From assembly GCA_949300385.1 (NCBI GenBank), contig CASGDZ010000002.1:111758-175757 (forward strand): DNA of 64,000 nt, read 5' to 3'. The translations under genes and the position numbers were made by a program. Under the pieces are notes generated by a model. It worked only from the letters and a program-made list of their open reading frames with translations. It was not told the DNA's origin and made no database searches. Below, piece after piece: positions 3,001 to 60,064 of this stretch (positions are counted from its first letter, which is position 1; each line of letters opens with the position of its first letter). This DNA comes from an uncultured Christensenella sp. Lineage in GTDB: Bacteria > Bacillota > Clostridia > Christensenellales > UBA1242.

Positions 3001-6000
3001 AAAATAAATGTGCTAGAAGGTGAAATTACTAACACATATACTTATTATTTACCTTATTTGGTTCAAGATGGCGAACCTATTATGGTTATTGCACCTACAA
3101 GTATAAGCGCTGAGATAGATAGTGATTACATAATATCTATTGACTCAATCTATGAAGATAATTATACATTTAGCGAAAATGAGATCACATCAGTCGCAAT
3201 AATTAACTATCATAATGATATAAATAATCAATCAAATAACATTGAATATAATACATATGACATTAAAGATTTGATTAATTTAGCAATAGTTCCAGAAGAC
3301 GCTTTAGGTGGGGTTAGATATTCTATAATATCAGGCTCGTCTTACGCTTATATCAATTCTAATGATCAGATTGTGTTTACAGGTGTAAGCGGAACAAATA
3401 GAATAATAGTTCGTTGCTACTCTGTATTTAATAGCGAGATAGAAGAATATGTTGTATTCTATACGCAAATAGGACTTAGCAATTTGATAATAGATTCAAG
3501 TGAAATCTATTTAGAGAGCGAAGATACATATAGTATCACAACATATACGGGTGCTAATGATAAACAAATAACAATTGATGCTGAAAATATATTTGGTGGG
3601 CAACTTGGTCTTACTGATAGAATGTTTGAAAATATATTTGACACTAATTTATCAGAATATTTAAAAATAGAGACTAGCCCAAAAGATTCAAAAATAAAAA
3701 TTGTTGCAACAGGCAATGCGATAGGCGAATATTTAATTAATGTTAAAGATTTAACTTTTGATGGCGACACTTATAGCGAAACAATTACATTTACATTATA
3801 TTTCAATGCTAAGAGTTATTATGGCGATAGTTTCTTAAATGAAAGAATAGAATTAGCAACAGTAAATTTAATTGTAAATGTTAAAAAATCTGCTGACTAT
3901 ATAGTTATGAATAATGGTCAGCAAGTGATATCTACATCATCAACTGCAAACTTTAGTGCAGATTTGTATACAGGTTATACTTCTTCTAGTACAGAATCAA
4001 ATTATGTAAGTTTCAATAAAAATTACAACCTAAATAGGATTGAATTAAATGAATCAGATAAGGATAGTATAAACTTATCCGTATCATACAATAGCGAAGA
4101 TGAAAATAAAGTTATAACACTTTTAAATCAGGCTAATGTAGATAGTATATTAGATTTGTTTAACTATAATTTCTCATACACTGCATTGCGTGAACAAAGT
4201 TCTATTATAGGATATAAATATAATATAAATGTTAGTTTAAAAGAAGGATTTAATTATAGGTATATTACTGAACCTATTGAATTTATATTTACTGTAAGTT
4301 CAAAGACGGACGATCAAGTTAGCGGAGTCGCTAATATAACATATGAACCTACTCAAGTTTCAACAATTCGTTTAGAGAACTATTCGGCATCAAATGTAAC
4401 ATCAACAGGTGGTTATACAAATTTAGTTAGTAGCGGTACAACATCTTCATACATAATTACTCCAGGCGGATATGGCGGACTTATGACCATATATTTGGAA
4501 CCAAATTACTCAAATGTTTTATCAGCGACATTGACTAGTGGAACACTTTATGTTCCTAGTTTGAATAAAAATGTATCATTGCGTTTTGAGCAATTGATTT
4601 ACAATGCAAAAGCAAATGTCTATCAATCTATGTATCCAGCAAATAGTTCGACAACGGGTGCTTTAGATTTACGGTTAGCGTCAATCTATGACGGAGAAGA
4701 ATATGAATATACAGGAATAATTTATGTACGAGTTTTCCTTGAACATTTTTCTGGTACAGAAGGTAGCATAAGCGTAAACTTAGATGTTAGAACAAGTGGA
4801 AATGTGGAAAAGTCAATTTCAAAAACTTTCTTAACACAATATCTTCCAGGCGCAAGTCTAAGTTTTAACGGAATATCAGTTGGTAATAATGAATACTTAA
4901 TACAAGAAAATTCGTATGACAATGTAGTTGAATTAAATATTTATGGATATCAATTTAATTCACAACCATCTATCGGACTTGAATGGGTATTGCCTAATAG
5001 CGAAAGAGGTTTGGGTACTAGTTTGACTATTGATAATAAAAAATATAACATTTATGATTATGTAAATTATAGTATAGGTCAAGTAATTTCAAATATTGAT
5101 GGTTCGTATACGATGCGTGTGACTTTGTCTGTACGAGCAAATATTCCTGCTTCATTTAAATTGACGGCAAGGATGACTTTGACTACGGATACTGGCCTTA
5201 TTTCTAGCAGTGAGGAAGCATTAGTCTTCCACCCAACCGACTATATTGTGGATAATACTCAAACTACATTAGAGCGTATTAACAACGGCATAATGCAGAT
5301 GACAATTAATCAAAATCGTACATTAGAATTCGTATTTGAAACCGAATCAACTAATTATGATTATAGTGAAAATATTTATGATGTATTAGTTACAGATATA
5401 GGTGTTGAAAATCTAGCAAGTTTATTCAGTTATCAATTAAATGGCAATACATATAAACTTTCAGATGAAAATAGTGCATTCACAATCTCATATGTTGAAG
5501 TCAATGGCTCTGAGTTTAAGCGAATTGCAATAAATGGTCTTGCTACATTAGATGTAAATGTTAATTTCTCAATTAATTATGAATTTAATATAGATGAAAA
5601 TAGCGGTAGATATAAATTGCATTTCACAACGGGTGCAGGTGCGTATAGAATGTCGTTTACATTTAGATTGCAAATCTTGCCAGGTACAACCACAGAACAT
5701 GCTACTCCTATCTATTCAGCAGACGATATTTTCGATCCAAATGCAAACGAATGTTTGTTAAACGAAGGCGAAGATTATATCTTAATGAATGATATAACGC
5801 TAGAAAATCTAGTACCTATTGAAGTAAATATTGGTAGTCTTGATGGTAATAATAAGATAATCACAATTGCTTCGTTTGCTTCTGCGCTCGAAAGTGAAGA
5901 GGCGGTTGAGTATGGCTTATTTGCAAATATCGGCACATACACTCTTGCAGGAGAAGAATATCAAACAATACTAAAAAATGTTGTAGTAGATTATGGCTCA

Positions 6001-9000
6001 CTAAACTCTGATATCTCGTTTGTAAATAGCAATGCTACAGAGATATATTTTGGTGGACTTGTTGGAAGAAACAACGGCGGAATAATATACAACTGCGATG
6101 TTATGAACTTTAGCGCTAACAGTAAAGATGTCACATTGTTAATAAACAATTCGAGCGATGTAGATGTATACTTTGGTGGACTTGTAGGCGAGAACAGCGG
6201 AGTTATCACTAATTCACGCGTTGGGCGTTCTACATTTACACGAGTATATGTATCTTCTAGTGGTAATGAGAGCGTAAATTATAATTATGGACCGATTAGG
6301 CCGATTAATTTCTACATAGGAGATCCAAGTGTTAATGGACAAGGGTTTGTAGCGGTTGTCGGCGGATTTGTTGGCTCAAATAATGGAAAGATATCAAGTT
6401 CATATGTTGCAAATACAAGTATTATAAGTAGTTCGACAGCGCCAAATGAAAGTATGACGGCAGGTTTTGTTGGTGAAAATAATTCGGGCGCTAGCATAAT
6501 GTATTCGTATGTTAAGGCATTAGAGAGCACTGTTACATCAACAAATCCATATTCTACTGGCACGTATATAGAGAATTTAACTAATGGTACTGTAGCAGGT
6601 TTTGTAAACTACAATGCTGGTACGATTTCAAATTCGTACGCAAACACTGAATTAAGGTCTAAATCAAATGTGTTGTCAGGATTTGTGTATAATAATGCAT
6701 CTAGCGGTATTATAACTGAATCATATTCAGCATGTACTTATAATGGCAAACTTATTGGCGCAAATACAACAGCAGAACAACCATTTGTCGGCCGAAGCAA
6801 TGCGGAATTATTATCATATGGTATTATTGAAAATTGCTACTACATAATATCGGACGGAACAGTTATTGATACAAGCAAAATACCTAGTCCAGAAGATAAA
6901 GATCAAGCAGTTGCTATTAGTGAAACAAACTTTCAGGATCCTAATTTCTTAAATAACTTTGTATTTGTATTATCCAATTCTTTAACTAGTAGAAATTTAG
7001 GTGTTTGGTCGTACTATACAACAAATTCTAGTTATAGAATTTTACCAGAATTAATGACAGCGAATACGATTGCTACATCGTATAGGTATTTAGTTGGCGT
7101 AGGTGAAGAAGGTAACAATTATGATTATGCATATTCATTCTATTTAGGAAGCGCGAACAATCCATATACAATACAAGATGTACAAGAGTTCAATAGCATA
7201 ATGACAGGGGAAGGTTCAACTTCTATTTATGGATATTTTAGACTTATAAATGACTTATACTTCGATACAACAGCAGTAAGTACTCGTTTGAATTTTACAT
7301 TAGGTGATAGTTCAAATAAATATATCACTAGTTTCGAAGGGAACGGCATGACGATTAGCGGAATATACCTTGACGCTGAAGAGAATGTCGGCTCATCTAT
7401 TGGACTATTTGCGAATATCGAAAACGCTTATGTTAAAAATGTAAATCTAGAGTTTGCGAGCGAATTTAGTTCAGCAAATATCACATATGCGGGCGGATTG
7501 TCTGGAAAGATTAATAATAGTGTTATCATAAATATCAATTTGTCTGGCAATGCAACAACCATTAATGGTACAAGTTTTGCAGGTGGACTTGCCGGAATAA
7601 TTACTGGCAATAGTTTAATCTATGGCATTAATTCAAATTTGAATGCGGTTGCAAACAATGAGACAGGCGATTTCTATACAGGCACAGCATACTCTAATAT
7701 GTCATTTGCTGGTGGAATAGCAGGTCTTATTGACATCACTCCACGCGAGAATGAAGAATATAATCTTTCATACATTGAAATAAATGGTAGAGAGATGAGC
7801 ATTGGTGCAAATTATAATGCAAACATTCAAGCATATTATGCGGGTGGTGTTGCAGGTTATGCAGGAAGTGGAGTCAATGCGTTCAAAATAAAATTCACAA
7901 CTGGGAATTCAAATCGCATACGCGGTCAAGAGGCAGTTGGTGGATTATTTGGTGCTTTCTTAGGTAATTTAACCGCTTCTCAGGTGACTGCCGAAGAAGA
8001 TGAACAATATAATTACGACACAACGCTTGGACAATATGTCATGTCTATCGGATCAGAATCAAGCGATTTGGATACAACTCAGGCAGGAAATCTCAACCTA
8101 TTAGAAGGATATAATTATGCTGGAGGTTTAGTAGGTGTTGGATTAAATTCTTTAATAAGATCAAGTTACGCTAAAGTTGGGGTATATTCAGGTAGAAGCG
8201 TAGGAGGATTAATAGGTTTAGCAATATCTCCTAATATCCAATATTCATATGCTGTTCCTTATATCAATTTGGACAACATTTCATACTTTGAGAATGTTGG
8301 TGGAATGCTCGGGGAAACATATGAAAAAGGATATTATTCAGATAATATTTCTGGTTATGTTGGTGCGTTTAATTCAATAGCAGGTTCAAACGATTATTCG
8401 AAGTTAAGTTTTGCCTTTGCAACCTTGATAGTAGATAACGATAAATTAGTTGAAAATGCTGATAAAATTGTAAGTGATAAATATCTAAAATACTTTGATT
8501 ATATAGCAGGTTATTATGGTCAAGATTTAGGTAATTCTAATGGATATTTACATGGAACGGGTGGCGGAACTCCATTAATTTCTGTCTATGCAGGTAAAAT
8601 AAATTATTCAGAAAAAGCAATTGGCGACAACAATATAAATTTAGTTCAAAATTCTACCGAATCACGCGCAAATAATATAGAATTAAATGCGCTATACAAC
8701 ACAGAGAATGCAAGTAATCAAGCAGAGACTTTCCAACGCGTATTCTCTTCATGGTCTACAGAAGAATATTGGACACTAGATAGTAGTAGATACTTCCCAT
8801 TGTTGCTTAATAGGAACTCAACGGGTTATTACGAAATAAGTAATGATAATTTAGAAGAAGCAATTAATGTAATTATCAATAATCCTGATGGAAATTACAA
8901 GATTGTTGAAGATCTAGACTTTTCAACTATTTCTATTTCAGGCAACTTCATAATAGAGATAGGCGGGGACGGATTTACTGGCGTACTTATAGGTCAAAAA

Positions 9001-12000
9001 GATGATGGCTCAACTCCAACAATTTCTAACTTAACAGTTAACGCAACTAAAGACGGAGATACAGGTTTCTTCAATAGAACTACAGGTGCAAGAATTAGCA
9101 ATATTAATTTTGAATGGTCAAGTATTAACTTAAATGGAAAAACTATTGATTATGTTGGCGGAGTAAGTTGTAAAGATGTTGGATCACAATTTAATGGCTT
9201 AAATGTAAGCATGATAAATAATCCAAATTCAACTTATGCAATGAATATAATTTCGTCAGAAATATCGGCTATCAATCCGCCTAAAATTTCAGGATTTGGC
9301 GGTATAGTTGGATCAGGTACTAATAGCAATATTATATCTTGCTCATTTGTAGGAAACATAAGTGCAAATTTATCTGTAACGGAAAATAATAATGTAATTA
9401 ATGTTGGTGCAATTATCGGTAGAGCGGTCGCAGATAACACTCTTAAAACAGAAACATTAGGCATGATTGTCACTGACTCAAATGTAGGAAAAGATGGTGT
9501 AAATACAACATTTAATTTCTATAACTTAGGGTCATCAAATAGTTCAAATGTAAATATTGGCGGAGCGGTCGGTTATGCTGATAAAGCCGCGATTAGTGGG
9601 GTAAGTGTCGGCAGTTATAGTTATGCCGAAACTCCATATGTGGATATATCATTAGATCTGAACAATAATGACAACATATATTTAGGTGGACTTGTTGGAT
9701 ATAGCAACGAAACCCAAATGACATCGATTAACTCTTTGACGAATATATCTGTGACAGGCGGGGAAACAGCAAGCGGAACGACTACCGCAAGTGTAAATGT
9801 AGGTGGATTTGCTGGATTCATAAGTACAAATTCGACCACATCTGCATTCAGAAATAATGCTACCAAATCTAATATTGTTGTTGGCGAAGAAACTGCAAAT
9901 CATATCACAAATCTAAGATTGTCAACTGGTATTGCTTATGCAAGTTCAACTTCTACAAGCGATAAGATTAAGATAGAGCAATCGCTTTTCACAGGTAAAA
10001 TTGTTGCTACAAATGACTCGTCGATTGATGAAAAGAAAGTAAATGCAACAAATATTTGGGCAGGTGGCGCAGTCGCTTATGTAGACTTAAAGAATAGATA
10101 TACTTTAGTTCTCAGCGAAGTTATGAGCACAACTGACATATTTGTCGGCTCTGATGATGCAGACAATGGTACTAAACAACTATATGTCGGTGGACTTATT
10201 GGCGCAGGCGGATTAAACAATGAAACCCTTTCTGCTCCTATTATTGAATTAATAAATTGTGGTTCGACAGGTAGAATCGTTGCTATAAGTTCAAGTGGAA
10301 GTTCAACGGACAATATTCATATATATGTCGGCGGACTCGTTGCTTTGTCTTCAAATTTGACAATAAATTATTCATATTCAGCAACTTCAATTCTATCAGA
10401 CGGAATAAGCGGAATAAATTATAATCTAGCAAATATTGGTGCTATTGTCGGTGGATTGTTAAAAGATAGTACTATTTCGTCAACTCAAACTTACTATTCT
10501 AGTGATATAGCACTTGCTAGCGAAGATTATGATGGCGAAAGTGACGGATTATACAATTTATCTGCTTACAGATTTATCCTTACTAACGAATGGCATACTG
10601 CGTTTGCTAATGGAAATGTAGGCGTTTGGTATACAAATAGCACTTACATGCCATATCTCACATCACTTTATACTACGCTACAAAATTATGGCATTATGAA
10701 ATCTTCTCAAACTAATCCATATGGTGAGAATGGGACTAATATATTAAATCCTAAAATAATTAATACAAATACTATTACATTAGAAGAAGATTATACATTC
10801 TATTTGTTATCAACTAATATGAATAATAATTTAAAACTAAATACAAATTCAAATTCTACTTTGAATGGAATAATGATAGCGAACGAAACTAACTATATGG
10901 TAGACTTGTTATCAAGCACAGATGTTGGATCGTATAGTTCATTCATTCCTACTATTGCTAATCATTCTGCAATATCAAATTTACATGTTTTATTCACAGC
11001 AAATTCTACGCTAGCATTAACAGGAAGTTCTGAAATACTCGTAGCATCAATGATTGCGGGCAACAATAATGGAATTATATTTAATTCTTCTGTAATTGGA
11101 ACGGGAATTGAATTGAATAGCAATAGTAGTCAAACATATTTTGGCGCAATTGCGGGCGAAAACAATGGCTTAATTTCTCATTCATATTCTACAATAGAAA
11201 TTATTAATACCAATATTACAAATGGTGCAATTTCTGGTATAGTTGTAAATAACTATGGCGCGATGGATTCATGCTATTTTACAGGATATATTAATAATTC
11301 AAATAGCAGTACAAGCAGTACAACTTTAGCGTCAGGATTGATATATTCGGCTCAAGAGAGTGAAACAACTAATGGTTATATCCATAACTCATACATGGGT
11401 GGCGTTATTGAAAGCGTATCTCCAAATGGAAATAGTTTTATTGCGTATTTTGATAATACAAAGAATTATGGCACTAATAACTTTATAGACAATTTATCTA
11501 ATTTTGACAGCAATTATAGTAATAGCATAAAGGGTGTATCGACATTTAATATTATGCGCGCAAAAGATTTGTCTGGTAAATGGGCAAGTGTTATAAATAC
11601 TAAGGAATATAATGATAAACCAACTTATTATATAGATATGACAAGCAAGACATTCGGTTATAATTATGGTTATCCTATCTATGACTTTAATAAAGTTGGT
11701 ACAAGTCAAAATCTTTTAACTTACTATCAACTATATACAGGTAATGGTACAACTAGCGATAATATAGATGAAAGTGCTATATTAAATAATTATGTAAATG
11801 ATGCTGTTAATAGTACAACAGCTAATAACTATTATAGAATACCGCATCTTGGAGTTTTACATTCAATTCAAGGTTTAGCAAACATAATTGATAGTAATAA
11901 TAGTAATGTTACTTATACTAAACTAAATTATGTTTTAATCTATGATATTGACGCTTCAAACTATTCCACATCTAATGTTGCTGTTGGAAGTTATGATAGT

Positions 12001-15000
12001 AATTCAACTTCCAGTTCAGATGATGAAGGCTTTTATGATGGAGCAAATGCACAATTTAACGGAAGATTTATCACGAACAAATATTATGAATTTAATGAGT
12101 ACGAAATTAATTATAATGGCTGTGAACAAGTTTGTACAATAAGCGGATTGACAGGCTCAGGCTTGTTTGACAATATAATATATGCTAAGTTTGAATACAT
12201 AAAATTTGGCAACATGAATTTGACTTCAAGCGGAGCGCTTGGCGTAAATGTTATCAGTAATTCGACGGAAACAAGCGATAGCGAACAAAATAGCGGAATA
12301 TTAGTCGATCATATATGGATTGGAGATAGTGAAAACACAGCGGAATTTACAGGAGAAAATGTCGGCGGATTATTTGGAACAATCAGCGGAAATACAATCG
12401 AAATCAAGAATTTAATTACATATTCTGAATTAGGTTATCAAATAACGATAAAAGCAAATGGCAACAATGGACTTATTGCTAGCACAATGAAAGGCGGGTT
12501 AATAAGTTTAGATGATTGTGAATTAGGTGTAAACTTTGCTGGTGTGACAGTCGATGGTAGCAGTACTAACGGCGGATTAATCGGTCAAATGACCAATGGA
12601 ACTATTAATGGCGAATCAAATGAAATTAGAGTTGCTAACGCCGATTCAGGTGCTCCAAGCGATGTATTAGGCGGAATAGTAGGTAACATAACTTCTGGAG
12701 AAACTAACAAGATTTCAATTTCTAATATAAATGTCTCATTTATAACTGGAAATAATGGTATAAATGCCGTTGCTTTAGGCGGATTTGTTGGTACTATGAC
12801 AAGCGGAACAGCAACTATATCATCATGTAAATTTATTGCTAATAGTGATATTTCGGCAAATTTAATTGATCAAGCGAGATTTGGGATAATCGCTGCTCAA
12901 ATTCAAGGCGGAACATTGTCTCTATCAGGCATTGAAGCAAATGAAGATTTTCAAATTAATATTAACTATAATACTGGCGACAACCAAATGATAAATTATA
13001 GTCAAGCATATGGTATTCTCTTCGGCGAAGTTCAAGGCGGAATTATAAAACCAACTACAGACACAACAGATAATTTATCATTTAATAAGATAACACTTTA
13101 CACTGTAGGTGGCTCAAGTGCTTCTAAAAATGTAGGATCAGTAATAGGCTGGTATACAGGCGGACAGGTTGATATTGTATTTGACGGAACTACGAACTTT
13201 ACAATTTATGGCCATGAAAATGTAGGTGGAGTGATCGGTAATTATACTTATTCTGATTCGGGGTATATAAATGTTGCACAGATCACAACTATTGTTCATG
13301 GAGATTATAATGTAGGCGGATATATTGGAAGTGCTGTAATAAATACAAGTGATACAGGTGAGAATAGTTCAACTAATTTGACTTCACTCGTAGGTAGCGG
13401 TTATAATTATTTACAAAGCAATACTTCATATTCCACAATATATACACTAGGTAGCAATAATTCTACAAATAAGGGCAACATTGGTGGCATATTTGGATAT
13501 TTAAAAGGTGACTTAACACTTAAATCAGAAGATGAAGATAATGTAGAAAGTACAGCAAATAATAATTCGAATGGCACAACAATTAAGAATTTAAATACTA
13601 TTTATATAGCGAATAATAATGTCAAGATCAATGGATTTGATACATATACAAATATAGGTGGAGTTGTAGGTCGACTTGAAGGTAATATAGACGATGCATT
13701 AAATAAAGGCACGATAGCGTATTCAATTTCAAATATAGAAGGATACAAGTCAGGATCAGACTCATTTATAATAGAAGATACATCATTAGGAACAAATGCA
13801 AATAGCGCTACTTATGCGGTGAATGTCGGCGGTATAGTTGGTAAGATCACTAAAACTGGTGATAGTCAAATGACTTTAACTGTGAAAAACATTCAAAATA
13901 TGGCAGATATTGAAGGCTATCAAAATGTCGGCGGACTCATTGGATATGTGAGCGGTATTACTATAACTAATGAGATTGAAGAGAACGAAGATGGTGAAGA
14001 GAGCGGAGATGATACTCAAACACTCGCTACTACAGAAACATCAAGTAGTGGTACTATTTCTGGAGTATTGAATGTTGGTGGCGCGTTTGGTTATGTTGAT
14101 AACGGAGCATCAACAACACAAATTACAGGCATAGCACTCAACGAAGTACATGTCAATGGTAACTCAAATGTCGGCGGATTAATAGGAATGTACAAGGGCG
14201 GATATGTAGGCGAATCTTCCGTCGATAATGTCGAAGTAAAAGGTATTTATTATACGCTCATTAAATCAAATCAAACTGGTTCTGATATATCAACATATTA
14301 TTATAATTACATTCCAACCAGCGTAGGTGGATTTATTGGAACGGCACATAAACTAAATACTGATGTTTCAGGTGCAATATATTCCAACACTTTAACGAGC
14401 GTGACGGTTACAAGCGAAAGCGAAGGAACTTCATATAACACGCAGGCTGATGAAGAAACTTCAAAAGTTATATCAACTGTTCAAAACTATATGCATTCGC
14501 ATTATTTAGTAGCAGACAGTGAAAAGGATGATTATTCCAACATTCTTGAATATAATGAAGAGACAGCAATTGCGGTATTTGACGATATGACTACGGGTTT
14601 TGGCGGATTTATTGGTTCAGCCAACATGGCGGCAACAAGTGGAACTTATCAAGATATCACTTCAACAGGAGTTACAGAGGAAAAAGACATTTCATCAAAT
14701 ACAATTAATAGTATTACTATTAATCCAAGTTTGGGCGTAAATGTAGGTACATACTACGGATACTATTATGACTCGGATACGACAGGAAGCAAAGATGTAG
14801 GACTTCCAACTTTAACATCAGGCGAGACTAGCGTCAATGGCGAGACTAGCGTCAATGGCGAGACCAGTGTCAATGGTGCATATAATATCGGCGGTATTAT
14901 CGGTTGCTATCATTCGACTTCAAATACAGCAAAAAGTTTTGAAGACCTTAGTACTGCAATAAATTCTTTTGAAGGCAAAATATCAGTGCAAAAACAAGGG

Positions 15001-18000
15001 GAAACAAATATTACAGGTATGTATGTCGGCGGAATTTTCGGTAAATATGTTGGAAATGCTACAAATCTAAAATTAAATACAAATAATAAAACGATCGTGA
15101 CTATTGATTTAACAAATGCTTACTATGTCGGCGGACTTATAGGTAGACTTGAAGGTAATTTAACGGCAAGTACAAAGGATGGCACATACAATAAGAGCGA
15201 CAATAGTGTAGCGAATGTCGTCTCATATAATTCGACTGAAGTGTTAGATAACTTTGGCGGACTCGTAGGTATGTTAAAAGTTGGAGAAGTGGACGGAGGA
15301 ACTACTGCAACAGTAATAGGTGAACATTATTATCCGTTTACTATAAATACTATTGAAAATAGTAATTACGCCGATGTAGCTACAACTTATGACGCAACAG
15401 AAAGTGAAGACAATATATATCTAACCGCAATAGCGGGTTATGTGAATCAGGATAGTTTCACAATCTCTGCTACTTCAGAAACAACATATTATGAAGTGGA
15501 AAGAGATAGTGAAAATAATATAACTTATACACCAAATAATCCATTGAATCCAGATGAGACATTCGGTTGGGCTAAAGATTATACTATGTTTAAGACCATG
15601 CAACGCAATATTCCACAATCTGAGAATAAAGGTGCAACATGGGACGCAATATCAATAGTATACGACGCATCATATATCACATATGTCGGCACTATGGACA
15701 ACTTGGATATCTTTGACTTATATAAGGGGGAAAAGACCAAAAAAGGTGAAGAGTATACAGAAGATTATATCTGTTATACCATCGTAGAACCAGTCGAAGG
15801 CGACGCTACATTATATTGCGCATTAGGAATAGCATCTGTATATTATGACGATGATGGTAATTATGCTGATGAAGATGATTTTTATAATGATGGAGCAAGT
15901 AATTTTAGCAGATTTTGGCAATGGACTGGCGCAATATTTGGAGTAAATGATCCTCCTACTGATATATATTATATAGATATTGCATTAACAGATCCAGGAC
16001 TTACTTATTTGGATTATAAATCAAACAGCTATAAAACAACAAATGGCGGAAATACTTTGAGTATTGTAGCCAAAGCAGAAGAATTAAAATATTTATTGTG
16101 TTCAGTAGATAATTACTATCAACTGATAGATGAAGACGATAATGATAATAGTGTAAGCAATGACAATAATGAATATAAAGAAAGGAAACCAGAAAAAACT
16201 TATTTCCAATTAGATGTCATATATGAAAATTCAAGCGTTCCAGTAGAATATGATAAAGATGGAAATCCTACTGCGTACGGAAGTGATGGCTACACTGCTT
16301 CTAGTGGATCATTGTTTGAAGCAAACGGAGTTGCTACAAGTGCTGCTGAATCAGCACTTAAATCAGGAGATTCGGCTTATCCATGGTTGGAATGGGTACA
16401 GACTGCTATAGATTTAGCATTAGCATTAAGTTTTGCAGGTGGAGTAACAGCTCTTAGTGCTAAATTTATAGGTAAAGCGGCATTAAAACAAGCAATAAAA
16501 AGTACAGCTAAATTTATAGCTAGACTTACTATAGAATTTGGTGCCAAAAAAATATTGGCGTTATTAACGGTTAGTTCAGTGGCAGCAAGTTTAACAGGAG
16601 CGACTTATTCGACTATTCGCGGACAAACTATGGGCTATTTAGGGCCAAGTTATATGCGGGAAATAACATACGATTCAAATGGTCATGTATATGCACAAAC
16701 GGATGAAACAATATCTAATGAATATGGTATATACTATATGTATTACTCTTCAACTCGACCAGCAGATTATTATATAAATAGATATTTCGTTTATATCGTT
16801 GAAGATGATAGTGTCACAACTCATAAATACTCAGCATCGCAATTGACATTAGGAGACATTGAGACATCTTCGTCAAGCGATTATTATGGAGCATATAAAG
16901 TCACTGCCATAAATGGACAAGCAGTTTCGGAAGGAACTAATGTTTACGCATATGATTACTATTTCTATGAAAAAGGCGTATATTATGTAATTGCTGATAC
17001 TATCTCTACGGAAACTATTCTTTACCAAAAATATTTTGATCCAGATCAATGGGGAGATGATATCACTCTTCCTATCTATACGAATAATTTAGGATACTAT
17101 TATGTTGCAGGTTCATATAATGGTGATACTGACGAATATAGTTATGCAAATAGATATGGTAATAACTTAATACCTAAGGACAGCGAAGGTCAATATGTAA
17201 TGGATGATGAATCATTTGAAAGCGAATTCTTCGAAGTATATAATACTAAAGCTTCATTTGATAAAGAATTAAATTTTGTTCCTGTAGAAAATGGATATAT
17301 GTCTAAAACTTATGGTTTAACAATTAATAGTAATGATTTTACAATAAGTGATGTATACAATATTTCATATTACTATGGTTATGGATATTTAGATAAGGTA
17401 TACTATACTGCAAATGGAAATATAAAAATCACTTATGCAGGTGCAAGTACAGGCGCAAACATTAAACCATTAATAGGTACATTTACATATACAGGCGCCG
17501 ATGGAGTTGGAACCGAGGGTATAGATTATATTACTCTGACTTATACTGATGATGAAAATAATACTAATCAATACGATTTTATTTTAACAAGTATATCTAC
17601 TGATGGTTCGGGGTCTGATTATCAAGATTTAAGTTTAGATGGAGTCCCTAATCTAGTCACTAATAAAAATACTACTAAATATGTAAACCTATATCCAACA
17701 TCGTTTACAAATCCTTATACTATTCAAATATCAGAAGAAGATGTCCCTTCATATCCGATTTTTACTGAAGTTGAAATAGAAAATGAAGATGGAACTAAAA
17801 CAACAAAAGATGTGGAAGTATATTTCGTTGAAACGAATTTATCAGCAATAGAAGATATTAGTAGTGTACAAACATTAAGCAAATCTGCAACATTCTATTA
17901 CTTTAATGGCGGTTACGAAACAAGGACAATTACGGATAATTCCACAAATAAGACTACTACATATGTCATAAGAGAAAGTACTGAAAATTATTATACGATT

Positions 18001-18762
18001 TATGATAATTCTGGAAATCTTGTAATGTGTAATAGAAATGAACTTATCTCTTATTTAAGTGACGACAATTATTATGGTGAATATTATGGTTCGGGATCAT
18101 CATATAATATGTTATTAAAAGATTATTACGACTATGTAGATGACGACTATTTATATAAATATGATTCTGATACAAAGACTTATAAATTATTTACTAATGA
18201 AATTGAAATCTTCGATGAAAATAAAATTTATAAGGGGAATATGAATTACTCAAATGCATCGAAATATTTATATAGTAGCGACGATTATTACTTTATTGTT
18301 GAGGAAATTTCTGCAGAAGATGGTTCTACACAAAAAGTATATGCTTCAATCAAAGATTATTTCACAAAAGGAAAATTATACATGATTGATGACGACGCTT
18401 TCCTTGATAATCAGATTAAATATAAGATTAATGATAAAGAATCTGGCAGCATTAGTATTTTAACCACTGTTGTTATTGAATACCCTAATCATGAGACATA
18501 TGCTAGCAATTATAATCAAAATAAATACTTAATGAACGCTTCTACACAACTCTATACTAGATATAAATATGATGACGACTTTAATAATAATGTTTGGAGT
18601 GGGTATAATTTGTACAGGAATACATTTACTTATCCTAACCAAGGATATACTACATATCTTGTAGAAGGTTGTAGAGTAGTATTAGGTGGCGGAGGCGATT
18701 ATGTTGCTCCTAATACAGATTCTAATAATGGGAAATCAATAGGTAGTTTTAATGTAATATAA
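1..18762 (+). CDS. Giant repeat-rich cell-surface protein, 5'-partial (GLUG-type beta-solenoid modules, Ig-like spacer regions, C-terminal membrane hairpin plus Tyr-rich domain)
   Basis: Frame 1 has no stop from nt 1 to TAA 18760-18762. The ORF-track start TTG 229 is only the first start-type codon in frame and has no SD. Dozens of N[VI]GG[LFI][IV]G units. Module entry motifs such as NPYTIQDVQEFNSI...FEGNGMTISG. Confidence 0.9.
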   Translation, partial: SEIFVKVAFTGTALDASTISLNLPDSSPIKFGNGLSSINLSDTANVRLIQTSSKYNVYAVKFASCNQQLNSVRLDILAGEGAVGVSTYVYVNSVFLADENSIEIYTDDENANDFSQNGELMFAIIRGTSNSFRVFADVKNNYIGDVNPIQTIERVDNNNTNKIQFTRMSNSEFIITGISNTNYAVELTLKIHYFTNDNVKVELKSTEKSILFAVYDTIDSISATKENKDITYINSKYEEASQIEINFNALTSNSSIVSDSVIFTDDIKYDNANQIKISLSDPSLREFVQLSIKTTESEQIIQSGEVLSLNSENIFRGTIIVRLTQNIAIDSVSVVFSALRFGVESGINRYVTINIADYEYADNIVVSGNEIVEEGLNNYWIYMSFLSVEDGGQDIAKFNARAEYANNISSSLRFDDLTYRLYRVSTSLTGEKTEELVVGGGVSVTIVDGVVTITAEKYYGGGIYRLELATLDSYDDILGDYKTTFSLNLRISDGDIYAYTISNAEDLKNIANDMGANYELIQSFSISDFTPIGGTDGSNVVNAFTGSLKGVNSSVSTAKNSITVEISKTIEDDTNTYAGLFAILGNGAVISDLDIYVKFNTSSLTANSTLNIGAVAGLNNGATITNVNVSYLHDYSGIDLTKVSSSINFGLVVGTNNAIIDLNGCSVIFDATILTKSNTNIGAIAGINTGSIGGTSGDVDLTSVSYSIEVNLVVKNSAQNSQINLGGVVGYAYGGNVSTISNIVVGGIIKLVNDGTNVNANGNVGGFVGRVGDGTSNNGAKISSCYALGLDVINGASGNVAGIVANANGVEVTNTKFMSANVEFNAITNSNGNTITDGFESKGQITGQNNVAGIIATSTESNITNSSVENFITGDFYTIDNTGVLNNNTGAIIAEGNAIINKSFVNANIKSSGEILLVTTGAKNSYFVGKVDNLDTTKLISVQDDTCYAVVYTDDLIYYYNYEGSWTEIADYDNWSSSTLLNIEYTSSSDWKINNEYNLIKINVLEGEITNTYTYYLPYLVQDGEPIMVIAPTSISAEIDSDYIISIDSIYEDNYTFSENEITSVAIINYHNDINNQSNNIEYNTYDIKDLINLAIVPEDALGGVRYSIISGSSYAYINSNDQIVFTGVSGTNRIIVRCYSVFNSEIEEYVVFYTQIGLSNLIIDSSEIYLESEDTYSITTYTGANDKQITIDAENIFGGQLGLTDRMFENIFDTNLSEYLKIETSPKDSKIKIVATGNAIGEYLINVKDLTFDGDTYSETITFTLYFNAKSYYGDSFLNERIELATVNLIVNVKKSADYIVMNNGQQVISTSSTANFSADLYTGYTSSSTESNYVSFNKNYNLNRIELNESDKDSINLSVSYNSEDENKVITLLNQANVDSILDLFNYNFSYTALREQSSIIGYKYNINVSLKEGFNYRYITEPIEFIFTVSSKTDDQVSGVANITYEPTQVSTIRLENYSASNVTSTGGYTNLVSSGTTSSYIITPGGYGGLMTIYLEPNYSNVLSATLTSGTLYVPSLNKNVSLRFEQLIYNAKANVYQSMYPANSSTTGALDLRLASIYDGEEYEYTGIIYVRVFLEHFSGTEGSISVNLDVRTSGNVEKSISKTFLTQYLPGASLSFNGISVGNNEYLIQENSYDNVVELNIYGYQFNSQPSIGLEWVLPNSERGLGTSLTIDNKKYNIYDYVNYSIGQVISNIDGSYTMRVTLSVRANIPASFKLTARMTLTTDTGLISSSEEALVFHPTDYIVDNTQTTLERINNGIMQMTINQNRTLEFVFETESTNYDYSENIYDVLVTDIGVENLASLFSYQLNGNTYKLSDENSAFTISYVEVNGSEFKRIAINGLATLDVNVNFSINYEFNIDENSGRYKLHFTTGAGAYRMSFTFRLQILPGTTTEHATPIYSADDIFDPNANECLLNEGEDYILMNDITLENLVPIEVNIGSLDGNNKIITIASFASALESEEAVEYGLFANIGTYTLAGEEYQTILKNVVVDYGSLNSDISFVNSNATEIYFGGLVGRNNGGIIYNCDVMNFSANSKDVTLLINNSSDVDVYFGGLVGENSGVITNSRVGRSTFTRVYVSSSGNESVNYNYGPIRPINFYIGDPSVNGQGFVAVVGGFVGSNNGKISSSYVANTSIISSSTAPNESMTAGFVGENNSGASIMYSYVKALESTVTSTNPYSTGTYIENLTNGTVAGFVNYNAGTISNSYANTELRSKSNVLSGFVYNNASSGIITESYSACTYNGKLIGANTTAEQPFVGRSNAELLSYGIIENCYYIISDGTVIDTSKIPSPEDKDQAVAISETNFQDPNFLNNFVFVLSNSLTSRNLGVWSYYTTNSSYRILPELMTANTIATSYRYLVGVGEEGNNYDYAYSFYLGSANNPYTIQDVQEFNSIMTGEGSTSIYGYFRLINDLYFDTTAVSTRLNFTLGDSSNKYITSFEGNGMTISGIYLDAEENVGSSIGLFANIENAYVKNVNLEFASEFSSANITYAGGLSGKINNSVIININLSGNATTINGTSFAGGLAGIITGNSLIYGINSNLNAVANNETGDFYTGTAYSNMSFAGGIAGLIDITPRENEEYNLSYIEINGREMSIGANYNANIQAYYAGGVAGYAGSGVNAFKIKFTTGNSNRIRGQEAVGGLFGAFLGNLTASQVTAEEDEQYNYDTTLGQYVMSIGSESSDLDTTQAGNLNLLEGYNYAGGLVGVGLNSLIRSSYAKVGVYSGRSVGGLIGLAISPNIQYSYAVPYINLDNISYFENVGGMLGETYEKGYYSDNISGYVGAFNSIAGSNDYSKLSFAFATLIVDNDKLVENADKIVSDKYLKYFDYIAGYYGQDLGNSNGYLHGTGGGTPLISVYAGKINYSEKAIGDNNINLVQNSTESRANNIELNALYNTENASNQAETFQRVFSSWSTEEYWTLDSSRYFPLLLNRNSTGYYEISNDNLEEAINVIINNPDGNYKIVEDLDFSTISISGNFIIEIGGDGFTGVLIGQKDDGSTPTISNLTVNATKDGDTGFFNRTTGARISNINFEWSSINLNGKTIDYVGGVSCKDVGSQFNGLNVSMINNPNSTYAMNIISSEISAINPPKISGFGGIVGSGTNSNIISCSFVGNISANLSVTENNNVINVGAIIGRAVADNTLKTETLGMIVTDSNVGKDGVNTTFNFYNLGSSNSSNVNIGGAVGYADKAAISGVSVGSYSYAETPYVDISLDLNNNDNIYLGGLVGYSNETQMTSINSLTNISVTGGETASGTTTASVNVGGFAGFISTNSTTSAFRNNATKSNIVVGEETANHITNLRLSTGIAYASSTSTSDKIKIEQSLFTGKIVATNDSSIDEKKVNATNIWAGGAVAYVDLKNRYTLVLSEVMSTTDIFVGSDDADNGTKQLYVGGLIGAGGLNNETLSAPIIELINCGSTGRIVAISSSGSSTDNIHIYVGGLVALSSNLTINYSYSATSILSDGISGINYNLANIGAIVGGLLKDSTISSTQTYYSSDIALASEDYDGESDGLYNLSAYRFILTNEWHTAFANGNVGVWYTNSTYMPYLTSLYTTLQNYGIMKSSQTNPYGENGTNILNPKIINTNTITLEEDYTFYLLSTNMNNNLKLNTNSNSTLNGIMIANETNYMVDLLSSTDVGSYSSFIPTIANHSAISNLHVLFTANSTLALTGSSEILVASMIAGNNNGIIFNSSVIGTGIELNSNSSQTYFGAIAGENNGLISHSYSTIEIINTNITNGAISGIVVNNYGAMDSCYFTGYINNSNSSTSSTTLASGLIYSAQESETTNGYIHNSYMGGVIESVSPNGNSFIAYFDNTKNYGTNNFIDNLSNFDSNYSNSIKGVSTFNIMRAKDLSGKWASVINTKEYNDKPTYYIDMTSKTFGYNYGYPIYDFNKVGTSQNLLTYYQLYTGNGTTSDNIDESAILNNYVNDAVNSTTANNYYRIPHLGVLHSIQGLANIIDSNNSNVTYTKLNYVLIYDIDASNYSTSNVAVGSYDSNSTSSSDDEGFYDGANAQFNGRFITNKYYEFNEYEINYNGCEQVCTISGLTGSGLFDNIIYAKFEYIKFGNMNLTSSGALGVNVISNSTETSDSEQNSGILVDHIWIGDSENTAEFTGENVGGLFGTISGNTIEIKNLITYSELGYQITIKANGNNGLIASTMKGGLISLDDCELGVNFAGVTVDGSSTNGGLIGQMTNGTINGESNEIRVANADSGAPSDVLGGIVGNITSGETNKISISNINVSFITGNNGINAVALGGFVGTMTSGTATISSCKFIANSDISANLIDQARFGIIAAQIQGGTLSLSGIEANEDFQININYNTGDNQMINYSQAYGILFGEVQGGIIKPTTDTTDNLSFNKITLYTVGGSSASKNVGSVIGWYTGGQVDIVFDGTTNFTIYGHENVGGVIGNYTYSDSGYINVAQITTIVHGDYNVGGYIGSAVINTSDTGENSSTNLTSLVGSGYNYLQSNTSYSTIYTLGSNNSTNKGNIGGIFGYLKGDLTLKSEDEDNVESTANNNSNGTTIKNLNTIYIANNNVKINGFDTYTNIGGVVGRLEGNIDDALNKGTIAYSISNIEGYKSGSDSFIIEDTSLGTNANSATYAVNVGGIVGKITKTGDSQMTLTVKNIQNMADIEGYQNVGGLIGYVSGITITNEIEENEDGEESGDDTQTLATTETSSSGTISGVLNVGGAFGYVDNGASTTQITGIALNEVHVNGNSNVGGLIGMYKGGYVGESSVDNVEVKGIYYTLIKSNQTGSDISTYYYNYIPTSVGGFIGTAHKLNTDVSGAIYSNTLTSVTVTSESEGTSYNTQADEETSKVISTVQNYMHSHYLVADSEKDDYSNILEYNEETAIAVFDDMTTGFGGFIGSANMAATSGTYQDITSTGVTEEKDISSNTINSITINPSLGVNVGTYYGYYYDSDTTGSKDVGLPTLTSGETSVNGETSVNGETSVNGAYNIGGIIGCYHSTSNTAKSFEDLSTAINSFEGKISVQKQGETNITGMYVGGIFGKYVGNATNLKLNTNNKTIVTIDLTNAYYVGGLIGRLEGNLTASTKDGTYNKSDNSVANVVSYNSTEVLDNFGGLVGMLKVGEVDGGTTATVIGEHYYPFTINTIENSNYADVATTYDATESEDNIYLTAIAGYVNQDSFTISATSETTYYEVERDSENNITYTPNNPLNPDETFGWAKDYTMFKTMQRNIPQSENKGATWDAISIVYDASYITYVGTMDNLDIFDLYKGEKTKKGEEYTEDYICYTIVEPVEGDATLYCALGIASVYYDDDGNYADEDDFYNDGASNFSRFWQWTGAIFGVNDPPTDIYYIDIALTDPGLTYLDYKSNSYKTTNGGNTLSIVAKAEELKYLLCSVDNYYQLIDEDDNDNSVSNDNNEYKERKPEKTYFQLDVIYENSSVPVEYDKDGNPTAYGSDGYTASSGSLFEANGVATSAAESALKSGDSAYPWLEWVQTAIDLALALSFAGGVTALSAKFIGKAALKQAIKSTAKFIARLTIEFGAKKILALLTVSSVAASLTGATYSTIRGQTMGYLGPSYMREITYDSNGHVYAQTDETISNEYGIYYMYYSSTRPADYYINRYFVYIVEDDSVTTHKYSASQLTLGDIETSSSSDYYGAYKVTAINGQAVSEGTNVYAYDYYFYEKGVYYVIADTISTETILYQKYFDPDQWGDDITLPIYTNNLGYYYVAGSYNGDTDEYSYANRYGNNLIPKDSEGQYVMDDESFESEFFEVYNTKASFDKELNFVPVENGYMSKTYGLTINSNDFTISDVYNISYYYGYGYLDKVYYTANGNIKITYAGASTGANIKPLIGTFTYTGADGVGTEGIDYITLTYTDDENNTNQYDFILTSISTDGSGSDYQDLSLDGVPNLVTNKNTTKYVNLYPTSFTNPYTIQISEEDVPSYPIFTEVEIENEDGTKTTKDVEVYFVETNLSAIEDISSVQTLSKSATFYYFNGGYETRTITDNSTNKTTTYVIRESTENYYTIYDNSGNLVMCNRNELISYLSDDNYYGEYYGSGSSYNMLLKDYYDYVDDDYLYKYDSDTKTYKLFTNEIEIFDENKIYKGNMNYSNASKYLYSSDDYYFIVEEISAEDGSTQKVYASIKDYFTKGKLYMIDDDAFLDNQIKYKINDKESGSISILTTVVIEYPNHETYASNYNQNKYLMNASTQLYTRYKYDDDFNNNVWSGYNLYRNTFTYPNQGYTTYLVEGCRVVLGGGGDYVAPNTDSNNGKSIGSFNVI
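1480..15400 (+). repeat. Six GLUG-type repeat modules inside the giant ORF (approx. 1480-2800, 5700-7060, 7160-8810, 8820-10670, 10740-11690, 11825-15400), separated in part by Ig-like beta-rich spacers
   Basis: Each module starts with an x-Y-x-I-S/T...DL..I...Y.L..DI..-type motif followed by F.G.(F)DGNG..I. It continues with repeated ..N.G.I.....VGGLVG.. units and ends in an aromatic cap (e.g. VWSYYTTNSSYRILPELM, EEYWTLDSSRYFPLLLN, VWYTNSTYMPYLTSL). Boundaries estimated by eye. Confidence 0.6.
14821..14874 (+). repeat. Perfect in-frame 18-bp tandem repeat x3 (GETSVN x3) inside the giant ORF
   Basis: ggcgagactagcgtcaat ggcgagactagcgtcaat ggcgagaccagtgtcaat. Copies 1 and 2 are identical; copy 3 has two synonymous changes. 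Confidence 0.95.
16381..16620 (+). other. Predicted membrane hairpin (two hydrophobic segments flanking a Lys-rich loop) near the C-terminus of the giant ORF
   Basis: WLEWVQTAIDLALALSFAGGVTALSA - KFIGKAALKQAIKSTAKFIARLTIEFGAKK - ILALLTVSSVAASLTGATYSTI. Hydrophobicity judged by eye only. Confidence 0.45.
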
Positions 18763-18793: not shown

Positions 18794-19762
18794 CTATTTG
18801 CTAAGTTCATAACTACCCTGATTTATCTTACCTTGACTATCAAAATATGTAATAGATTGATAATTGTTTTTAAATTCTTCTAGGTTATCTGTGACGATTG
18901 TTATTTTAGACATTTTTAAAACATTTGTAGAATAATCGTAATAACCAGGGAATGTATGATTTTCCATTATACGCAATTCTTTATTGTTTGATATCATTTC
19001 TTTATTTGATTTATCTACTGTTCGTACATTTAAAGTAAATTCACAATCTTGATTAGCACTTACTACATCTATTTTAACATTTTCATTACCTATATACTGT
19101 CCAGATAGATAACTGATTCTATTTTGTAGTGATGTGAAAGTTTTTGTATCTACATTCACATGTGATTCAACTGTTGCTCTTTTTTGAGAATCTAATTCTT
19201 GAATAAAGAATGCTGATTGAATATATTCTTTATTATGTAGCATATATAAGTCGTCATATTCTTTTTCTGTCAAAGGATATGACAATACATAGTTACCATA
19301 ATATCCTGCACTCGTTTCAGCCTTAACTGATAAATACAATTTAGATTCATCATTATTCATTATGTAAGCAACACTTTCGCATGACAACTCATCATTCTTA
19401 ATAGCGTCTACATCATATCCTTCACGCTCTAAAAATGTATATGGTATTGGAGACTCAGCGTTTTCAGCATAGACACTATTAGTTGCTATAAAATCTTCAA
19501 TAACTTGGTCGTAGTAAGGGTCGGATAACACATCGTTTAAGATATCACTATACTTGCTCTCAGTATTTCCACCAATAATATCAGTGTTACCGCCACCAAT
19601 ATCGTTGCTATTAGACATAGAATTACAAGCGGACAAACCCATGCTTAACACCATAGCACCCGCAACAGCAAGCCCTGCAACAGCACGCTTTAATTTAGAA
19701 CTATGTGCTTCTTTCTTTAAAGCTTTTCTAGTTTTAACTATTAAATTTTCATTTTCTTCCAT
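18794..19762 (-). CDS. Orphan lipoprotein (322 aa)
   Basis: Lipobox L-S-A-C at residues 43-46 (AGAMVLSMGLSAC|NS) after a hydrophobic h-region. SD GAGGT upstream of the ATG. No family recognised in the mature part. Confidence 0.85.
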   Translation of the reverse strand: MEENENLIVKTRKALKKEAHSSKLKRAVAGLAVAGAMVLSMGLSACNSMSNSNDIGGGNTDIIGGNTESKYSDILNDVLSDPYYDQVIEDFIATNSVYAENAESPIPYTFLEREGYDVDAIKNDELSCESVAYIMNNDESKLYLSVKAETSAGYYGNYVLSYPLTEKEYDDLYMLHNKEYIQSAFFIQELDSQKRATVESHVNVDTKTFTSLQNRISYLSGQYIGNENVKIDVVSANQDCEFTLNVRTVDKSNKEMISNNKELRIMENHTFPGYYDYSTNVLKMSKITIVTDNLEEFKNNYQSITYFDSQGKINQGSYELSK

Positions 19763-19872: not shown

Positions 19873-19901
19873 ATTATAACACACGATTTGACATTTGTCA
19901 A
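19873..19901 (-). promoter_or_regulatory. Consensus sigma-70/SigA-type promoter for the lipoprotein gene
   Basis: Minus strand reads TTGACA (19901-19896), a 17-nt spacer, then TATAAT (19878-19873). The -35 is one arm of the inverted repeat TTGACA-tt-TGTCAA (19888-19901). Confidence 0.7.
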
Positions 19902-34177: not shown

Positions 34178-34220
34178 AAAGTTAACAAACATGACTTTTA
34201 GTCAAGTGGAGGGGAAGGAT

Positions 34221-37200: not shown

Positions 37201-37454
37201 TAAATGCAAGTTTTATTACAGAATATTTTGGTTCTACTTGTTCTTATGTTGGAGATGAAAATAGTAGTTTCTTTAAGACTGTAAATAACGCAGATTTCAT
37301 TAACTACACAACATACACAAGTAATTGTGTAATTACAGCACTTAGTGGTTGGTGGCAAACAACAGATTATTCATTTGCTATGAAATTTGATTTCAATGGC
37401 ACATGGTCAAATACGATTGACGGAATTAATCTAGCATTCGTATATAATATTTAA
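34221..37454 (+). CDS. 1,077-aa GLUG-repeat surface protein with N-terminal TM anchor (two GLUG modules)
   Basis: ATG 34221 is preceded by GGAGGGGAAGG, whereas the ORF-track ATG 34191 has no SD. MKKFLAVLVAIVVVVCIGLTTYYF anchor. NPFYISNATEFASIG...FTGTFDGNGYTISGLNL entry motif. Repeats include AGALAG, IGGFAG, LGGLVG and VAGLV(A/V). Confidence 0.9.
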   Translation: MKKFLAVLVAIVVVVCIGLTTYYFLRNDEVISFNTTEIYCNIGDKITIQQLGKSVKRESNKTTYDYNAGGEEVTNHIQFDEKAGYYVVNDTNGGDVELVIKTSNENYSEFKILVHIGDGSETNPFYISNATEFASIGTGIFGLSKNYMLMSNITLGADFMPIGTTSGAETNYGFTGTFDGNGYTISGLNLTGTDYLNAGLFTKLTGATISELKINAPIVNGSYLTAGALAGTITNSNVTKVAVIDANITNNMTSQTFVGALAGAIEGVNSNVNLSYATGTVSGTRDVCIGGFAGLISEASVQSTYAETEIIVAEDATETMAGGFAGAFRIGASSGTIRESYAYSSSDYINFASFISNIMKVSEGTDIEKNKLTYLIGNYVYTSNDKIINVNDLDELAEEGQTFELYNSTKEIYMVVPITSWSDIQALPIFYAVNGKVTYWSELNWTLTSGQPTLKIDSGNTTISQVSSEYFRKDLNTEIVNNQEAFISLIESAKASGNTIENKKYALSENLTIDVSSMGEWTPITLINSVIDFNGATITGLTLSNGVSGEDQNVLLGMFSKIQNSAVKNLTIDGVTISGNATYAGALAGVVNSVDANLGVSSIENVNVTYADSVNSTIENLGGLVGRIDNGTIIENSSVANMNTNSSANITNVAGLVAVVNDNLSSISNCEVNIGNDGYLYATNGVAGLVVVNNGILNNNSGSIKVAYNRNDVVGDINVAGLVAENNGSIVGGEYVIDINIDMTNQVINVAGITTTNNGRIENITLTGEGISIKNVLADAVYVGGLVVNNNGAIDNGYNLMESVGTYYEGKNFVVGGIAVYNSNENSSIRQVIAGSNVYGNTVAGVVVEMNNRSAQINQVLVAGFDTSTDTITAKEIKGDKYVAGVAYDLSAGLITNVQAQSNLVGATNTTRTSLIVLIFPDGAKLNNSSINSTLDGNGTFYRETWADYDSTKPFGSISKNANFNLFAVNSAAGEMQGVVINTEKAGEHGISTINASFITEYFGSTCSYVGDENSSFFKTVNNADFINYTTYTSNCVITALSGWWQTTDYSFAMKFDFNGTWSNTIDGINLAFVYNI

Positions 37455-59491: not shown

Positions 59492-60001
59492 ATGAAAGTT
59501 AAGAAATTAGGTCGTCCAACCGAAGAAAGATTAGCTATAATGCGCAATCAAGCTACAGACCTTCTTTGGAAAGGCAAGATTGAAACTACCTTAGCGAGAG
59601 CAAAGTCTTTAAAGAGTTATGTAGAAAAATTGTTAACACTTGCAATCAATTCATACGAAGATGTTGTATCTGTACAAAAGTCTTTCGTTGATGCTAAGGG
59701 TGAAAAATCTACTCGTGAAGTTATGAACGATGGTCCAAAGAAACTTGCTGCGCGTAGAAAAATTACAGCTAAAACTTATTCTGTAAAGGAAGAGCGTAAA
59801 CCAGGTGAGAAGAAAGCCGATTATGTTGCGCGTATTGATAATATTAAAAACCCTTTACTTGAAAAAATATTTAATGTATACGCACCAAAATATGCTGAGC
59901 GCGCTAAAGAGTTAGGACAAAAGGGTGGATATACTCGTATTATAAAATTGGGTATTCGCAAAGGCGACAATGCAGAGATGGCTATTATAGAGTTAATTTA
60001 A
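59492..60001 (+). CDS. rplQ: 50S ribosomal protein L17 (bL17) with an internal ~55-aa insertion
   Basis: KLGR.....A..RN....L...[10 protein letters not shown] at the N-terminus and [23 protein letters not shown] at the C-terminus. Confidence 0.95.
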
Positions 60002-60017
60002 TTTACTCGACAAACAA

Positions 60018-60040
60018 ATGGGCATTTATGCTCATTTTTT
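60018..60040 (+). terminator. Intrinsic terminator ending the ribosomal cluster
   Basis: ATGGGCA-ttta-TGCTCAT (one G-U pair) followed by tttttt. Confidence 0.7.
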
Positions 60041-60064
60041 AAACTTACAAAAAAGGAAATTATT

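Follow-up and report, generated by a model that had tools for sequence, protein, structure and literature searches.

A predicted membrane hairpin and tyrosine-rich domain as a candidate anchoring module of a giant protein in an uncultured Christensenella species

The giant gene and its 3′ end

The stretch of DNA analysed here, referred to as the window, comprises 64,000 nucleotides of an uncultured Christensenella sp. (assembly GCA_949300385.1, contig CASGDZ010000002.1, positions 111,758 to 175,757). It opens with one giant open reading frame (ORF; 1..18762, + strand, frame 1) that enters from beyond the 5′ end and closes with a stop codon at 18760-18762, giving 6,253 residues within the window. 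On an ENA contig of 187 kb (ERZ17292904 k87_22628925) the full product called for the giant gene has 6,807 residues. Our analyses of the giant protein cover 6,253 of these, the first 554 lying upstream of the window, and the related loci described below likewise all begin within the giant ORF. The gene is about 20.4 kb long, in a lineage with reported genomes of 0.67-1.6 Mb. The subject of this work is the end of the protein, where two hydrophobic segments separated by a short basic loop are followed by a tyrosine-rich domain.

The features at the end of the ORF, all on the + strand, follow each other without interruption. A conserved region (15640..16377, aa 5214-5459, with SGSLFEANG at 16303-16329) leads to the aromatic stretch YPWLEW (16378..16395), which lies directly 5′ of hydrophobic segment 1, VQTAIDLALALSFAGGVTALSA (16396..16461). 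Then comes a loop of 30 residues, KFIGKAALKQAIKSTAKFIARLTIEFGAKK (16462..16551), which is polybasic (7 K, 1 R and 1 E; +8/−1) and amphipathic (hydrophobic moment 0.53). Segment 2, ILALLTVSSVAASLTGATYSTI, lies at 16552..16617, and the 714 residues after it (16618..18759) form the Tyr-rich C-terminal domain, which is beta-rich and non-repetitive. A sequence-only reading of this DNA had pointed out two hydrophobic stretches around a 30-residue loop with seven Lys and one Arg, and every string that it quoted is found in frame 1. It had put the C-terminal part, ending in GSFNVI, at about 710 residues; the count is 714, and the stop codon ends at 18762.

By summed Hessa values no other 19-mer of the 6,253 residues is as low as those of segments 1 and 2 (3.2 and 2.5, respectively); third comes a value of 4.9. 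On the Kyte-Doolittle scale the segments average 1.66 and 1.53. For comparison, SecY, which is likewise encoded in the window, has ten helices with summed Hessa values of −3.5 to +4.2 and Kyte-Doolittle values of 1.64 to 3.14. No 19-mer at or below Hessa 3.2 occurs among 5,103 residues of the window's soluble proteins. The two segments are marginal yet membrane-grade, scoring like the weaker SecY helices.

The Tyr-rich tail contains three conserved blocks. Block 1 (16618-16989) carries QTxGYLxxSYxRE, YxYYSxxRPxDYY and YAYDYYxYxNGxYY; block 2 (17368-17916) carries YYYGYGYMxxAYYTAxG, an immunoglobulin-like (Ig-like) strand pair, NLYPxSFxNPY and YYYxxGGY; and block 3 (18448-18759) carries YNxNKYL, QxYTRYKY and TTYLVExCRVxLGG. 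Tyrosine accounts for 14.1% of the post-hairpin residues, as compared to 6.6% in the remaining giant protein and 3.5% in housekeeping proteins, and the domain is indeed as strikingly aromatic as had been described. Moreover, Tyr occupies 19 of the 46 alignment columns that are conserved at 90% or more, which indicates that tyrosine belongs to the conserved core and is not mere compositional drift. Tyr-Tyr pairs are not above the expectation from composition (17 observed, 14 ± 3.2 expected). Over a short stretch, the tail is similar to the terminal strands of a class of extracellular domains (HYR/Ig-like); the match to protein P0006 is only this short Ig-like strand motif, present 21 times in an HYR-repeat protein. 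Sequence and profile searches of the PDB with the C-terminal module (delimited below) and with its last block returned nothing meaningful.

Established anchors of surface proteins were looked for as well. An LPXTG-like motif (LP.TG or a relaxed variant) is absent from all 6,253 in-window residues. Sortase substrates close with LPXTG, a hydrophobic segment and a short, basic end; here as many as 714 residues come after the segments. In Pfam the giant protein has no match to Gram_pos_anchor or SLH domains, and 13 homologues of the module, searched at E≤1, have none to SLH domains. Choline-binding (CW_binding_1) and CROP repeats have no Pfam match in the giant protein or the 13 homologues, and RHS/YD repeats have none in Pfam or NCBIfam. 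The motif and Pfam searches thereby confirm the earlier statement that LPXTG, SLH and choline-binding-type repeats are missing. Given its high content of aromatic residues and its YY/YG-type motifs, the tail could be taken to have diverged from one of the known wall-binding or repeat families (choline-binding/CROP, SLH or RHS/YD). This is extremely unlikely: the 13 members stay without a Pfam match even at E≤1, NCBIfam and PDB profile searches give none, and the candidate families are all repeat arrays, whereas no internal duplication between tail blocks can be detected (hhalign probability <1%). Since the blocks are not detectably related to one another, the tail is not a repeat array. The possibility raised by the sequence-only reading that the domain would match a known cell-wall-binding family found nothing in its favour in Pfam, NCBIfam or the PDB.

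The N-terminal part of the protein, its body, had been proposed to be built of repeats, and these did not prove to be clear ones. Comparison of the body with itself by BLAST (about 5,200 residues, window 1-15600) reveals no strong internal repeats (best off-diagonal E ~1e-4); all it shows inside the body is weak, degenerate self-similarity. There are 15 copies of degenerate NVGGxxG-like (GLUG-like) motifs in the giant protein, and Pfam Glug (PF07581) reaches 19.2 bits in six stretches of aa 2001-3200, which is below the cutoff of 20.5 bits. Such scarcity of repeats is unusual in a protein of this size. In Pfam and NCBIfam there is no family that matches the giant protein or its tail; in particular, Pfam detects no metalloprotease domain in the giant protein, and a PDB profile search with a segment of the body gave nothing meaningful.

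Conservation of the module and of a lipoprotein gene

The conserved unit begins about 250 residues ahead of the hairpin, near nt 15640 (profile match aa 5214-6252). Three parts make up this module of about 1,040 residues, namely the pre-hairpin region (SGSxFEVNG, then YPWLxW by segment 1), the hairpin and the Tyr-rich domain. When the loci were searched with a profile of the module (912 positions), the window and 14 further loci, with 22-41% identity, each gave a single match, and every one of these matches closes a giant ORF. It is important to note that the score of the window itself (E=7.8e-259, aa 5214-6252) is partly circular, as the window sequence is in the source alignment. The phmmer matches (E down to 7e-49) are independent of the module profile and hence not circular. 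That the hairpin and the Tyr-rich domain are conserved as a unit, a point that was to be checked by a homologue search, is thus borne out in 14 other loci.

The relatives came from different searches. Exhaustive phmmer search of 1.84 billion representatives gave eight matches, four of them below 1e-40, and scans with patterns derived from the alignment added 8 loci in GTDB genomes and 3 metagenome loci. Scans of genome contigs and metagenome contigs with patterns made from the window sequence itself gave no matches. A word-indexed homologue search with the 893-residue tail and with a 13-sequence alignment gave no relatives among the matches listed, and with a short C-terminal alignment it gave fragments of 124-218 residues only. 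No giant members of the family were returned by the word-indexed search though P0001 and P0004 sit in the same collection. Surveys by word index probably under-count very long proteins of biased composition. For five proteins from the searches genomic context was obtained by exact look-up.

In three loci (L004 at 5934-7426, L005 at 9953 and L006 at 5883-5993) the module is a separate ORF that follows the giant ORF after a frame change or a short gap, and in L005 the upstream ORF of 3,314 residues was left uncalled as a gene. In L010, a close relative of L006, the module is continuous with the giant ORF. The split modules of L004, L005 and L006 are probably assembly errors rather than real splitting.

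One of the relatives belongs to Candidatus Onthoplasma faecigallinarum, and the others come from gut metagenome-assembled genomes labelled 'uncultured Clostridia' or 'Christensenellaceae'. In a 2025 paper Onthoplasma is placed in GTDB family UBA1242 (Christensenellales), with genomes of 0.67-1.6 Mb (PMC12306168). Gene order near the giant gene is shared with Ca. Onthoplasma, and the locus is syntenic housekeeping DNA across species. The giant protein is colinear with its relatives across about 4,000 residues (30-55% identity), which argues for a conserved protein of the lineage and not a shuffled adhesin. Identity to Ca. Onthoplasma is 80% for RecD2, 34% for the giant protein and 37% for the lipoprotein described below. 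Judging by these identities, the giant protein changes much faster than housekeeping genes, as is typical for exposed proteins. It is the RecD2 identity and the shared gene order that place the window in this lineage. Two other identities were tried and rejected. A phage tape-measure or tail protein was ruled out by the genomic context. A polymorphic toxin with an immunity gene was rejected, since conservation of the C-terminus is close to that of the body and the DNA of the locus is housekeeping and syntenic.

A second gene accompanies the module. Directly downstream of the giant ORF and convergent with it lies a gene for a lipoprotein-like protein of 322 residues (18794..19762, − strand), with the signal ...MVLSMGLSAC and a conserved FIQEL motif. 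A homologue is found directly downstream and convergent in 14 of the 14 other loci (E 5e-25 to 1e-163). The lipoprotein has no match in Pfam, NCBIfam or the PDB. Upstream of its gene, a sigma-70-type promoter (TTGACA-17-TATAAT with extended TG; 19873..19901, − strand) shows 12 of 12 consensus matches, this being a pattern match only. On the sequence comparisons, the module and the lipoprotein are an undescribed family that is so far restricted to one uncultured, genome-reduced lineage.

Membrane topology and the proposed anchor

In the 14 homologues the hydrophobicity of the hairpin is kept and its sequence is not. Exceptions are the Gly-Gly of segment 1, present in all homologues, and YPWL(E/K)(W/Y/P) ahead of it, present in most. 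The loop has 22-52 residues in 12 of the 14 homologues; it is amphipathic, carries +5 to +14 with at most one acidic residue, and its outer flanks are neutral or acidic. Such a distribution of charge agrees with the positive-inside rule, by which the sequence-only reading had placed the loop in the cytoplasm, and we likewise consider the polybasic loop to be probably cytoplasmic. The divergent loci L005 and L014 have instead of segment 1, loop and segment 2 one unbroken hydrophobic stretch of 47-54 residues (Kyte-Doolittle up to 2.85 and 2.52). Most simply, this stretch can be read as two helices with a three-residue turn. If this is true, an even number of spans is preserved. Since the tail is homologous in all members, it would be on the same side in all of them, and only the two-span model fits the family.

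Composition points to the outer side. A log-odds score trained on the window's surface versus cytoplasmic proteins gives +0.17 for the tail, 0.13-0.24 for windows of the body, −0.14 to −0.34 for 20 cytoplasmic proteins and −0.36 for the loop. The surface-like score of the tail persists without the Tyr term, and the tail is acidic. A tail score within the surface range, together with the even span count, supports the proposal that both large parts of the protein lie on the outer face.

In Staphylococcus aureus Ebh a C-proximal membrane span is followed by a charged cytoplasmic tail. By analogy, only segment 1 would cross the membrane and everything beyond it, from the loop to the end of the Tyr-rich domain, would be cytoplasmic; segment 2 is indeed the weaker one in several homologues. 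We consider a single span quite improbable: the tail has a surface-like composition, beyond the range spanned by the 20 cytoplasmic proteins scored, a short part of it is similar to a pair of Ig-like strands of the extracellular kind, and the two clear helices with a three-residue turn in L005 and L014 would flip the homologous domain to the opposite side.

The residues that follow segment 2 bear on another explanation, in which the hairpin does insert and segment 2 is an internal signal peptide cut by signal peptidase. The Tyr-rich domain would then be a separate protein outside, which might be free or attached to the wall or to the lipoprotein, and the body would be held by segment 1 alone. 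In the secretion model that has been proposed for IgA1 protease and ZmpB of streptococci, a pair of hydrophobic segments comes before a second signal-peptidase site (PMC3518915). Small residues do follow segment 2 (SLTGA-TY), GLUG motifs in the body stay below threshold, and a neighbouring protein of 1,087 residues weakly matches Peptidase_M26_N. In the alignments of homologues, however, no consistent site of the A-x-A type is seen after segment 2, and the conserved QTxGYLxxSY motif begins immediately past it (across the alignment, QTxGYLxxSYxRE starts right there). We consider cleavage of this kind unlikely.

The hairpin might also serve not as a resident anchor but as an insertion element of the kind known from translocating toxins, which have hydrophobic helical hairpins; once released, or on contact, it would insert into the membrane of a partner or target cell. 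The marginal hydrophobicity of the segments and an amphipathic, basic connecting helix would fit, as would a lineage that is thought to depend on other cells (PMC12306168). Segments as hydrophobic as those of L005, L014 and L012 (Kyte-Doolittle 2.4-2.85) would, on the contrary, be expected to enter the producer's own membrane during export. The C-terminal part is conserved like the body and not polymorphic, no toxin, enzyme or defence-type family is matched in Pfam/NCBIfam, and the locus is housekeeping and syntenic. In our opinion an insertion element is very unlikely.

Our results taken together support, by sequence comparison, a model with two spans, the basic loop inside and both large parts outside, as first proposed. 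We consider it likely that the last ~1,040 residues are a conserved, lineage-specific (UBA1242) and sortase-independent anchoring module with both its N- and C-terminal sides out and with a membrane-proximal Tyr-rich foot. In such an anchor the GLUG-like body of about 6,000 residues would be exported and project outward. Segment 1, which comes after the aromatic YPWLEW, would stop transfer, and YPWLEW presumably lies at the membrane interface on the outer side. The polybasic, amphipathic loop of 30 residues would remain on the cytoplasmic face, and segment 2 would restart export so that the 714-residue Tyr-rich domain also ends outside. By this route the pre-hairpin region and the tail would come to lie side by side at the membrane; the one would end and the other begin only a few residues away from it, which would force this arrangement. 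Together with the co-conserved lipoprotein, both parts would form a membrane-proximal foot that holds the fibre in the envelope. This foot would probably bind wall glycopolymers via the conserved tyrosines, and the tail may itself contribute to anchoring. What we infer here from the sequences is that the segments insert into the membrane with the topology given, that the foot assembles and binds the wall, and that the protein takes part in contacts with partner cells.

Several observations weigh against the proposed anchor. Export of the body is assumed, and a signal peptide would lie in the 554 residues upstream of the window. The window protein's own segments are marginal (Kyte-Doolittle 1.66/1.53; Hessa +3.2/+2.5). 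Segment 2 is weak in L012, L013 and L004 (Hessa sum 5-6), and in L015 no 19-mer of it comes within the listing cutoff of 7. In L014 four basic residues lie just past the second helix, which misfits the simple positive-inside rule. The topology is a computational prediction. AlphaFold2 models were unusable both for the 953-residue module (8 sequences, predicted local distance difference test score (pLDDT) 34.6) and for the last 159 residues (16 sequences, pLDDT 44.6).

A more far-reaching version of the anchor may be envisaged. The hairpin, the Tyr-rich domain and the lipoprotein might be the undescribed, envelope-spanning base of a megadalton fibre, with the loop as a link to the interior. The whole would then be an organelle for attachment to partner cells, perhaps drawing metabolites from them. 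We regard this as rather doubtful. If true, the envelope-spanning base would be a new, sortase-independent mounting of surface structures in wall-bearing monoderm bacteria.

Neighbouring genes and comparison with known systems

Two more large surface-type genes lie downstream on the + strand. The first, at 20436-29459, encodes 3,007 residues; close to its N-terminus the product has a hydrophobic segment (aa 16-34), and it contains Listeria-Bacteroides repeats (Flg_new, E=2e-11). In Ca. Onthoplasma (L003) the genes for L10/L12 take this position and a counterpart is missing there, and tblastn gave a weak, partial match in L018 only. The second, at 34191-37454, encodes the 1,087-residue protein mentioned above, with an N-terminal hydrophobic segment and a sub-threshold match to Peptidase_M26_N (19.2 vs 27.7 bits). 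It has a stretch of 150 residues in common with the giant protein (35% identity), and its orthologues of about 1,060-1,070 residues are syntenic in L003 and L018. The three unannotated surface proteins (the giant, 9-kb and 3.3-kb genes) take up about half of the window's first 38 kb. In 2-kb bins the G+C content is 25.8% at 60001-62000, the part that separates the ribosomal protein/rpoA cluster from the ORFs that follow, and 29-39% elsewhere. ARAGORN found no tRNA genes in the 64-kb window.

Animal and human guts commonly harbour UBA1242 bacteria, whose genomes measure less than about 1 Mb and which are suspected of living at the expense of other cells (PMC12306168; PMC13155120). Standard transporters are missing from the family, sporulation genes are retained and a partner-dependent lifestyle is probable (PMC12306168). 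The giant protein, encoded by a gene of about 20 kb that is colinear and orthologous in different species and ends in a novel module with a proposed anchoring function, is a concrete candidate for a cell-contact apparatus in this lineage. In addition, the module and the partner lipoprotein provide a new domain family and its companion, both left blank by current genome annotation.

Tethering of surface proteins by membrane helices, internal hairpins included, has precedents. The staphylococcal proteins Ebh and Embp are megadalton surface proteins of Firmicutes with a tandem-repeat body, held by a single C-proximal span and not by sortase. The scale and the sortase-free anchoring are alike, whereas the giant protein has two segments, a surface-like tail of 714 residues and no clear repeats. 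The P1/MgpB-type adhesins of the wall-less, genome-reduced Mollicutes are held by one C-terminal helix, which is followed by a cytoplasmic tail. They share with the giant protein large size, restriction to a lineage and a helix as (predicted) anchor in genome-reduced, host-dependent bacteria, and there is no sequence similarity. The lineage of the window keeps a Mur ligase gene, and sporulation genes are reported for UBA1242 (PMC12306168); judging by these genes the lineage is probably walled.

Aromatic-rich C-terminal regions of large secreted proteins are also known from the choline-binding/clostridial CROP and the RHS/YD families. These are tandem arrays recognised by Pfam, with aromatic units of ~20 residues in the case of CW_binding_1, whereas the Tyr-rich tail has neither a Pfam match nor internal duplication. 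In large clostridial toxins, too, a hydrophobic region precedes the aromatic C-terminal region.

The sequence-only reading knew of no described family with the arrangement seen here. This stands as far as family matches go, there being none, but not for the hydrophobic pair, which has a parallel in the streptococcal Zmp/IgA1 proteases. These are likewise large Gram-positive surface proteins with an internal hydrophobic pair that putatively spans the membrane, so that both sides are outside. Their hairpin is in the N-terminal region, where a signal peptide and LPXTG precede it, and its second segment is proposed to be cleaved (PMC3518915). In the giant protein the hairpin comes about 6,000 residues into the chain, there is no LPXTG, the domain that follows is Tyr-rich and unrelated, and no metalloprotease domain is detected. 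If its anchoring is as we propose, the giant protein would be a second, independent surface protein of Firmicutes that is tethered by an internal membrane hairpin and not by sortase, SLH domains or a lipid anchor.

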